Notes under the pieces: model-generated
Told to the model about the DNA's origin: nothing
The model's input: the letters and a program-made list of their open reading frames with translations, nothing else
Databases searched by the model: none
NCBI RefSeq assembly: GCF_988243305.1
Contig: NZ_OZ547136.1
Length of the DNA: 64,000 bases
Direction: 5' to 3' (one strand)
Translations under genes and position numbers: made by a program
In this document: positions 9,978 to 18,327 of the stretch, piece after piece
How the letters are laid out: each line of letters begins with the position of its first letter
How positions within the stretch are numbered: position 1 is the stretch's first letter

Positions 9978-11276
<1,299 letters not shown>

Positions 11277-15638: not shown

Positions 15639-16472
15639 TCAACGTAAATGCACGCCGCTTCGCCGTCCGGCCACCAGAATAGCCTGCGATTCAACCCCTT
15701 CTTCGATCTGTTTTGCCACCCGTTGCAGCGCCGGAAGATGCTTTTCCGCTGCCTGTTCAATGGTCATTGCGCTCGCCATATACACCAGATTCAGACAGCC
15801 AATCACCCGTTGTTCACTGCGCAGCGGTACGGCAATAGAGGCGATCTTTTCTTCTTGATCCCAGCCGCGGTAGTTCTGTCCGTACCCCTCTTTGCGCGCC
15901 CGCGCCAGAATGGCTTCCAGTTTTAACGGTTCCCGTGCCAGTTGATAGTCATCACCGGGACGGGTGGCTAACATTTCGATTAATTCCTTGCGTTCTTGTT
16001 CCGGGCAAAAGGCCAGCCAGGTCAGGCCCGAGGCGGTTTTCAGGAGCGGTAAACGTCGCCCGACCATTGCCCGGTGAAAGGATAAGCGGCTGAAACGATG
16101 GGTGGTTTCGCGTACCACCATTGCATCAACATCCAGGGTGGACACATCTGTCGGCCATACCACTTCGCGCAACAGATCGCCCAGCAGTGGGGCCGCCAGT
16201 GCAGAAATCCACTGTTCGTCACGAAATCCTTCGCTTAATTGCCGCACTTTGATGGTCAGACGAAAACTATCATCGGAGGGACTACGCCGGACATATCCCT
16301 CTTCCTGCAGCGTCTCCAGCAGTCGCCGCACAGTGGTGCGATGCAGGCCGCTGAGCTCCGCCAACAGCCCGACGCTGGCACCGCCGTCAAGTTTATTTAA
16401 CATATTTAATAACATTAGACCGCGGGTTAAGCCGCGCACGGTTTTGTATTCCGTCTGCTCATTGTTCTGCAT
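15639..16472 (-). CDS. mhpR: IclR-family activator of the mhp operon
   Basis: ORF track 15639..16586; conserved start MQNNEQTEYKTVRGL gives 277 aa. Confidence 0.9.
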   Translation of the reverse strand: MQNNEQTEYKTVRGLTRGLMLLNMLNKLDGGASVGLLAELSGLHRTTVRRLLETLQEEGYVRRSPSDDSFRLTIKVRQLSEGFRDEQWISALAAPLLGDLLREVVWPTDVSTLDVDAMVVRETTHRFSRLSFHRAMVGRRLPLLKTASGLTWLAFCPEQERKELIEMLATRPGDDYQLAREPLKLEAILARARKEGYGQNYRGWDQEEKIASIAVPLRSEQRVIGCLNLVYMASAMTIEQAAEKHLPALQRVAKQIEEGVESQAILVAGRRSGVHLR

Positions 16473-16505
16473 ATTAATTGACATTTCTATAGTTAAAACA
16501 ACGTT

Positions 16506-16520
16506 GTGCACCTGGTGCAC
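16506..16520. promoter_or_regulatory. Putative MhpR operator: two GTGCAC hexamers separated by CTG (GTGCACCTGGTGCAC)
   Basis: Palindromic repeat in the mhpR-mhpA divergent promoter region. Confidence 0.45.
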
Positions 16521-16662
16521 ATTCGGGCATGTTTTGATTGTAGCCGGAAACACCCTTCCTATACTGAGCGCACAATAAAAAATCATTTACATGTTTTTAA
16601 CAAAATAAGTTGCGCTGTACTGTGCGCGCAACGGCATTTTGTCCGAGTCGTGAGGTACTGAA

Positions 16663-18327
16663 ATGGCAATACAACACCCTGACATCCAGCCTGCTGTTAA
16701 CCATAGCGTTCAGGTGGCGATCGCTGGTGCCGGTCCGGTCGGGCTGATGATGGCGAACTATCTCGGCCAGATGGGCATTGACGTGCTGGTGGTGGAGAAA
16801 CTCGATAAGTTGATCGACTACCCGCGTGCGATTGGTATTGATGACGAGGCGCTGCGCACCATGCAGTCGGTTGGCCTGGTCGATAATGTTCTGCCGCACA
16901 CTACGCCGTGGCACGCGATGCGTTTTCTCACCCCAAAAGGTCGCTGTTTTGCTGATATTCAGCCAATGACCGATGAATTTGGCTGGCCGCGCCGTAACGC
17001 CTTTATTCAGCCTCAGGTCGATGCGGTGATGCTGGAAGGATTGTCGCGTTTTCCGAATGTGCGCTGCCTGTTTTCCCGCGAGCTGGAGGCCTTCAGCCAG
17101 CAAGATGACGAAGTGACCTTGCACCTGAAAACGGCAGAAGGGCAGCGGGAAACGGTCAAAGCCCAGTGGCTGGTGGCCTGTGATGGTGGGGCAAGTTTTG
17201 TCCGTCGCACTCTGAATGTGCCGTTTGAAGGTAAAACTGCGCCAAATCAGTGGATTGTGGTAGATATCGCCAACGATCCGTTAAGTACGCCGCATATCTA
17301 TTTGTGTTGTGATCCGGTGCGCCCGTATGTTTCTGCCGCGCTGCCTCATGCGGTACGTCGCTTTGAATTTATGGTGATGCCGGGAGAAACCGAAGAACAG
17401 CTGCGTGAGCCGCAAAATATGCGCAAGCTGTTAAGCAAAGTGCTGCCTAATCCGGACAATGTTGAATTGATTCGCCAGCGTGTCTACACCCACAACGCGC
17501 GACTGGCGCAACGTTTTCGTATTGATCGCGTACTGCTGGCGGGCGATGCCGCGCACATCATGCCGGTATGGCAGGGGCAGGGCTATAACAGTGGTATGCG
17601 CGACGCCTTTAACCTCGCATGGAAACTGGCGTTGGTTATCCAGGGGAAAGCCCGCGATGCGCTGCTCGATACCTATCAACAAGAACGTCGCGATCACGCC
17701 AAAGCGATGATTGACCTGTCTGTGACGGCGGGCAACGTGCTGGCTCCGCCGAAACGCTGGCAGGGTACGTTACGTGACGGCGTTTCCTGGCTGTTGAATT
17801 ATCTGCCGCCAGTAAAACGCTACTTCCTCGAAATGCGCTTCAAGCCGATGCCGCAATATTACGGCGGTGCGCTGGTGCGTGAGGGCGAAGCGAAGCACTC
17901 TCCGGTCGGCAAGATGTTTATTCAGCCGAAAGTCACGCTGGAAAACGGCGACGTGACGCTGCTCGATAACGCGATCGGCGCGAACTTCGCGGTAATTGGC
18001 TGGGGATGCAATCCACTGTGGGGGATGAGCGACGAGCAAATCCAGCAGTGGCGCGCGTTGGGCACACGCTTCATTCAGGTGGTGCCGGAAGTGCAAATTC
18101 ATACCGCACAGGATAACCACGACGGCGTACTACGCGTGGGGGATACGCAAGGTCGCCTGCGTAGCTGGTTCGCGCAACACAATGCTTCGCTGGTGGTGAT
18201 GCGCCCGGATCGCTTTGTTGCCGCCACCGCCATTCCGCAAACCCTGGGCAAGACCCTGAATAAACTGGCGTCGGTGATGACGCTGACCCGCCCTGATGCC
18301 GACGTTTCTGTCGAAAAGGTAGCCTGA
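16663..18327 (+). CDS. mhpA: 3-(3-hydroxyphenyl)propionate hydroxylase (FAD monooxygenase)
   Basis: 554-aa ORF; FAD-binding GAGPVG motif. Confidence 0.95.

Follow-up and report, generated by a model that had tools for sequence, protein, structure and literature searches.

A conserved pair of GTGCAC hexamers between mhpR and mhpA is very probably the operator of the IclR-family activator MhpR

The described MhpR operator and the mhpR-mhpA locus

Activation of the mhpA promoter Pa by MhpR depends on 3HPP, and CRP requires MhpR in order to bind there (PMC8753852); through MhpR, the E. coli genes degrading 3-hydroxyphenylpropionate, a plant-derived acid, are switched on. Its operator was mapped biochemically in 2003 and has entered regulatory databases, and Table 1 of PMC8222616 lists GGTGCACCTGGTGCACA as the binding motif of E. 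coli MhpR, citing Torres et al. 2003 for it. The same paper places MhpR in a group with the IclR-type regulators of aromatic catabolism PcaU, PobR, PcaR and HmgR, whose operators are likewise palindromes of approximately 15-17 bp lying between the divergent regulator gene and the catabolic operon. The MhpR half-site GTGCAC nevertheless differs from the GTNCG...CGNAC form given for the PcaU/PobR/PcaR/HmgR group, and the extra external direct repeat of the half-site found with PcaU, PobR and HmgR was not evident at the locus described here, where the flanking AAAWCAA sequence is unlike the half-site.

The window, that is, the whole stretch of 64,000 nucleotides analyzed from contig NZ_OZ547136.1 (assembly GCF_988243305.1), comes from an E. 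coli other than K-12 and shows the gene order lacI-mhpR-mhpABCDFE, with lacZ, lacI and mhpR running leftward on the minus strand and the genes from mhpA onward on the plus strand. In Pfam, the MhpR protein (start codon 16472..16470 on the minus strand, sequence beginning MQNNEQ) matched HTH_IclR at 1.8e-14 and IclR_C at 7.6e-13, and MhpA, with its ATG at 16663, matched FAD_binding_3 at 2.4e-84. Given these two start positions, the control region listed in Table 1 is exactly the intergenic region. A query of 501 bp around it found matches of at least 95% identity in 4,896 of 5,426 complete E. coli genomes, and among the matches listed, the RefSeq flanking features were mhpR and mhpA. The AT-rich flanks remarked on in an earlier note on this DNA were borne out by an intergenic GC content of 40.5% compared with 52.0% for the whole window.

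Table 1. Features of the mhpR-mhpA control region and of the genes on either side (window coordinates).
Feature	Position	Strand	Basis or remark
mhpR	15639..16472	-	IclR-family transcriptional activator, 277 aa; ORF, Pfam domains, RefSeq annotation of matching genomes
Weak CRP-like TGCAT-N6-TGACA	16465..16486		Centre 16475.5; overlaps mhpR start codon; PWM 1.8 bits
mhpR-mhpA divergent control region	16473..16662		190 bp, 40.5% GC
Flank TAAAACAACG, mhpR side of operator	16494..16503		Invariant in Escherichia, Citrobacter, Kluyvera
Probable MhpR operator, 17-bp perfect palindrome TGTGCACC-T-GGTGCACA	16505..16521		Sequence; match to published K-12 operator; conservation
Invariant block TGTTTTGATTGTAGC with -35-like TTGTAG (16538-16543) of Pa	16530..16544	+	Invariant in 21 enteric sequences
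-10 hexamer TATACT of Pa	16560..16565	+	TATACTG invariant in enterics; 39 nt downstream of operator motif
AT-rich block AAAAATCATTTACATGTTTTTAACAAAATA	16579..16606		Enteric-specific; mhpA leader, upstream of mhpR promoter, downstream of predicted Pa start
mhpA ribosome-binding region GTCCGAGTCGTGAGGT	16641..16656	+	Conserved; GAGG 16652-16655, 7 nt before ATG
mhpA	16663..18327	+	3-(3-hydroxyphenyl)propionate hydroxylase, first gene of mhpABCDFE, 554 aa; ORF, RefSeq annotation

The tandem GTGCAC-CTG-GTGCAC that the earlier note had placed at 16506-16520, between the divergent mhpR and mhpA starts, is present, with the two hexamers at 16506-16511 and 16515-16520 and CTG as the spacer. As the hexamer is self-complementary, its two copies form at once a direct repeat with a 9-bp period and an inverted repeat; in the window, the symmetry reaches further and gives a perfect 8+1+8 palindrome, the sole one of that size in the 64 kb. 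Exact GTGCAC-N3-GTGCAC occurred once in the window versus 0.01 expected from shuffles. With up to two mismatches, three matches were found versus 4.0 expected, so that this relaxed form was not enriched; searching for a second operator in the window, such as one before mhpT, returned only two 2-mismatch matches, which are at chance level and indicate that the window holds no second MhpR operator. Approximately two palindromes of the 8+1+8 or 8+0+8 type are expected per 64 kb (by arithmetic, 2 x 64000 / 4^8), and the case for function therefore lies in location and conservation rather than in palindromy itself; inside a control region of 190 bp, approximately 0.006 such palindromes are expected.

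At the aligned position, K-12 MG1655 carries GGTGCACCTGGTGCACA and the window TGTGCACCTGGTGCACA, which are identical at 16 of 17 bases. Over the full 190 bp, the window and K-12 differ at three bases, one in the operator and two elsewhere. The K-12 Pa operator, as attributed to Torres, Porras, Garcia and Diaz (J Biol Chem 2003) and Manso et al. (2009), thus shares with the window its locus, flanking genes and 17-bp element. Unlike the footprinted K-12 allele, the window operator has T instead of G at the outermost (first) base, which makes the palindrome perfect. On the strength of this match to the published 17-mer, of the adjacent mhpR gene and of the cross-species conservation described below, the earlier assignment of the hexamers to MhpR is upheld, and the GTGCAC pair with its 3-bp spacer is very probably the DNA operator of the adjacent IclR-family activator. 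The earlier note aptly described the relevance as regulatory annotation rather than novelty: the element had already been published, and the observation is a correct but ordinary annotation.

Conservation of the hexamer pair and geometry of the mhpA promoter

Conservation was evaluated in a comparative set of 80 loci encoding MhpR relatives of 55-98% identity, one per species, drawn from the genera Escherichia, Citrobacter, Kluyvera, Edaphovirga, Shimwellia, Pluralibacter, Vibrio, Pseudomonas, Stutzerimonas, Azotobacter, Azomonas, Marinobacterium, Zobellella, Nitrincola, Oceanospirillum, Xanthobacter and Plasticicumulans. The divergent mhpR-mhpA layout was kept in most of them. Upstream of mhpR, exact GTGCAC-N3-GTGCAC was found in 68 of the 80 loci and a form with one mismatch in nine more, compared with approximately 0.001 chance matches expected in the 19.5 kb searched; the exact motif also stands beside mhpR in Pseudomonas, Azotobacter and Xanthobacter. 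Although about two palindromes of this type are expected by chance in 64 kb, such exact conservation across species already refutes the reading of the element as a chance palindrome or a functionless pair of ApaLI sites, and the published operator listed in PMC8222616 runs against it as well, which leaves this reading a vanishingly small probability.

Hexamer spacings from 0 to 12 bp were tested across the 80 loci, and none other than 3 bp was found, while the spacer itself varied freely, with 17 different sequences. A motif-free hexamer count in 64 distant loci ranked GTGCAC first, with at least one copy in 61 and at least two in 54. All nine natural single-base variants of the hexamer break its self-complementarity and none is compensated, which, together with the invariant hexamer sequence, argues for base-specific recognition by a protein and not for an RNA structure. 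The core recognition element can be defined as two invariant GTGCAC hexamers and a fixed 3-bp spacer of any sequence. In an independent comparative study, a related TGTGCAT-N3-ATGCACA was predicted upstream of Burkholderia mhpR (supplement of PMC8222616).

The same variants bear on the possibility that the palindrome acts, instead of or besides a DNA operator, as an RNA hairpin, either an intrinsic terminator or attenuator or a structure of the mhpR leader. A scan flagged a minus-strand site resembling a terminator, in which ACGTTGTTTT follows TGTGCACCAGGTGCACA, the TTGTTTT tract past the palindrome is conserved across genera, and mhpR up-regulation under severe acid stress looks post-transcriptional (PMC11237407), which can be counted in favor of a hairpin. 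However, folding was unexceptional (-9.1 and -10.5 kcal/mol, z = -0.6 and -1.2 versus shuffles), the T/U run lies 4 nt away from the stem, so that the palindrome lacks the stable GC-rich hairpin directly followed by a U run by which an intrinsic terminator is recognized, Rfam returned sub-threshold noise alone, and the nine uncompensated variants amount to no covariation. We therefore consider the hairpin highly unlikely. It is also very doubtful that the palindrome has a dual use, as operator and as mhpR leader hairpin, and that, separately, the three- and four-hexamer alleles described below and the G/T alleles tune induction. Should transcription of mhpR begin rightward of 16521, the leader RNA would carry a GUGCAC hairpin and then the conserved UUGUUUU tract shortly before the start codon, and, if true, such a hairpin could underlie the post-transcriptional up-regulation of mhpR in acid stress.

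Some loci depart from the common arrangement. In Vibrio cincinnatiensis and V. furnissii (L023 and L031; MhpR relatives of 69-74% identity), there is no adjacent mhpA, and GTGCAC-N3-GTGCAC is absent within 300 bp upstream of the mhpR relative; in loci L024-L026, L029 and L066, a divergent mhpA is likewise lacking, and the motif is found upstream of mhpR at a distance of 173-234 bp. With the motif absent or far and no divergent mhpA, the regulon layout appears to differ in these loci.

On the mhpA side, the motif proved to stand at a nearly constant distance from hexamers resembling promoter elements. In 41 of the 68 loci, a hexamer matching TTG[TA].. begins exactly 17 nt past the motif; in the 16 enteric loci among them, the regular expression first met TTGATT at 13 nt, with TTGTAG also present at 17 nt. 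The types found at 17 nt were TTGTAG, TTGTCG and TTGTCC. Further downstream, 62 of the 68 loci have a [TC]ATA[CA]T hexamer of the TATACT/CATACT type that begins 39-41 nt from the motif, and in the remaining six, hexamers of the TAGAAT, TATCCT or TAGCAT type occupy roughly this position. Scanning of the control region for consensus sigma-70 promoters gave no match, as expected at an activator-dependent promoter with a poor -35 element, for which such a scan is uninformative.

From the -10 hexamer, transcription from Pa is predicted to start at approximately 16571-16572, 6-7 nt after TATACT, which would put the operator centre (16513) at about -58/-59. Judged from these distances, the operator position would fit an IclR-family activator site centred near -58/-59. 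A 2003 abstract reportedly gives the MhpR site at -58 and the CRP site at -95.5, and a position of -40.5 is reportedly also given in the work on this region. In the mechanism that these data suggest, the inducer 3-hydroxyphenylpropionate (or phenylpropionate, or 2,3-dihydroxyphenylpropionate) would lead MhpR to bind the palindrome, whose centre would lie approximately 58-59 bp before the transcription start of Pa, the sigma-70 promoter of mhpA, and the bound MhpR would help cAMP-CRP onto a weak upstream site, so that both together would activate transcription of mhpABCDFE. MhpR binding, inducer dependence and CRP recruitment are taken here from the literature, and sequence identity, conservation and promoter geometry from the present analysis. 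As the motif is kept with mhpR from enterics to pseudomonads, and at a fixed promoter distance, it should permit confident annotation of mhp regulons elsewhere.

CRP, IHF and the sequences flanking the operator

The earlier note had read co-regulation by CRP and IHF from the AT-rich flanks. For CRP, this agrees with the literature, in which CRP action on both the mhpA and the mhpR promoters is documented: PMC12871828 refers to CRP sites that RegulonDB gives upstream of mhpR/mhpA, and a CRP site is annotated for mhpRp2 in PMC12132413, where Manso 2011 is cited for it. As an inference from AT-rich flanks, however, it did not hold, since no good CRP site was found in the sequence. The best CRP-like 22-mers scored 3.6, 3.4, 3.2 and 1.8 bits versus 15.3 bits for the lac site, using a matrix made by hand from the consensus, and such weak sites agree with the published MhpR-dependent binding of CRP. 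For IHF, no match to WATCAANNNNTTR with up to one mismatch was found on either strand between 16440 and 16690, and the literature examined on mhp regulation contained nothing on an IHF role; this part of the proposal is unsupported.

Among the CRP-like sequences, the one overlapping the mhpR start codon (Table 1) has a right half, TGACA, that is conserved in most enterics, and its centre lies 37.5 bp from the operator centre. This distance equals the difference between the reported positions of -58 and -95.5 mentioned above, and we infer that the sequence is a candidate for the MhpR-dependent CRP site of Pa. Promoters co-dependent on a specific activator and CRP include melAB, with MelR, and malK, with MalT. 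The arrangement here would be like theirs in having the specific activator beside the -35 element and a weak upstream CRP site filled only with the activator's help, and unlike theirs in that the activator belongs to the IclR family and the position of the CRP site is a predicted one.

On the mhpR side, candidate CRP sites of the mhpR promoter centred at 16546.5, 16572.5 and 16594.5 were all weak, and none was adopted. An mhpR start deduced from TACAAT (minus strand, 16542-16537) and the ArcA and CRP positions in PMC12132413 were mutually inconsistent, and this assignment was dropped; the Reg-Seq supplement contained no mhpRp2 sequence or start site.

The palindrome might be taken for a CRP site (TGTG...CACA) and not an MhpR site, given that its outer TGTGC...GCACA is similar to TGTGA and TCACA, the half-sites of CRP, and that an action of CRP in this control region is documented. 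Its half-sites, however, are 7 bp apart, not 6 or 8; 22-mers centred on it scored at most -1.7 bits versus 15.3 for lac; conservation is centred on GTGCAC and not on TGTGA; and the motif is equally conserved alongside mhpR in Pseudomonas, Azotobacter and Xanthobacter. The literature, as represented by Table 1 of PMC8222616, also assigns the 17-bp element to MhpR. A CRP site in this place is therefore extremely improbable, and MhpR is retained as the probable protein recognizing the palindrome.

Conservation extends beyond the operator itself. In addition to the flank TAAAACAACG of the enterics, AAAWCAA occupies positions -10 to -5 from the motif in distant genera (Pseudomonas, Azotobacter and others), at 1.2-1.75 bits per position. 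TAAAACAACG could extend the MhpR contact, or could belong to the mhpR promoter or leader. ArcA repression of mhpR has been reported (PMC3798270; PMC12132413), and the flank might overlap the implied ArcA target in E. coli.

The same side of the operator raises the question of autoregulation, in which the operator would also control the divergent mhpR promoter, a reading compatible with its assignment as the MhpR operator of Pa. The operator is only 33 bp from the mhpR start codon, and in 62 of the 68 loci the motif starts 18-43 bp from that codon (22-36 bp in 60 of them), so near that the mhpR promoter must overlap or abut the motif; the conserved mhpR-side AAAWCAA points in the same direction. 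IclR-family regulators commonly control their own genes from a site shared with the divergent promoter. Expression of Pr is, however, reportedly MhpR-independent and cAMP-CRP-dependent, according to a 2011 abstract, which runs against autoregulation, and we regard it as unlikely.

The AT-rich block AAAAATCATTTACATGTTTTTAACAAAATA is strongly conserved in Escherichia, Citrobacter and Kluyvera, is reduced to a shorter core, ATATTAACAA, in Edaphovirga and Pluralibacter, and is absent from the short Pseudomonas intergenic regions; its CRP-like score was weak (1.07 bits, centre 16594.5). In Pseudomonas mhpA leaders (e.g., L052, L060 and L037), A-rich CAACAAGAAA or CAACAACTACAAA was observed between the -10 hexamer and the start codon, resembling the AANAANAA targets of Hfq/Crc catabolite repression.

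Allelic variation in E. coli genomes

T at 16505, the base that completes the perfect palindrome, was found in 3,096 complete E. coli genomes and the K-12 G in 1,507, and across genera, too, T is the majority base at the first operator position, in 53 of 72. The "imperfect" palindrome of the textbooks is thus that of the minority K-12 allele. Copy number of the 9-bp unit GGTGCACCT varies as well, with 16 expanded genomes among the approximately 4,900 carrying the locus: three hexamers were found in 15 of them, such as NZ_AP022003.1 (L083, with an intergenic region of 199 bp), and four in one, NZ_CP148385.1 (L002, 208 bp). Many of the genomes with expanded arrays are chicken isolates from one study. 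The expansions keep the promoter-proximal hexamer pair in its place, and all that lies upstream, the putative CRP site with it, is displaced by 9 or 18 bp. These three- and four-hexamer alleles could be used as natural experiments on the copy number of an activator site.

A further allele was observed in the lacY gene of the window (minus strand, 11231..9978), which carries an in-frame stop at codon 306 (10314-10316), so that the ORF is cut to 305 aa, with the other 103 codons following in the unchanged frame. A query of 41 bp with this stop at its centre matched none of the 5,426 complete E. coli genomes, and the 160 bp around it matched 5,345 genomes, at best with 99.4% identity, that is, one mismatch. 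The stop may be a private nonsense allele, which would imply a lactose-permease-negative strain, or a sequencing error.
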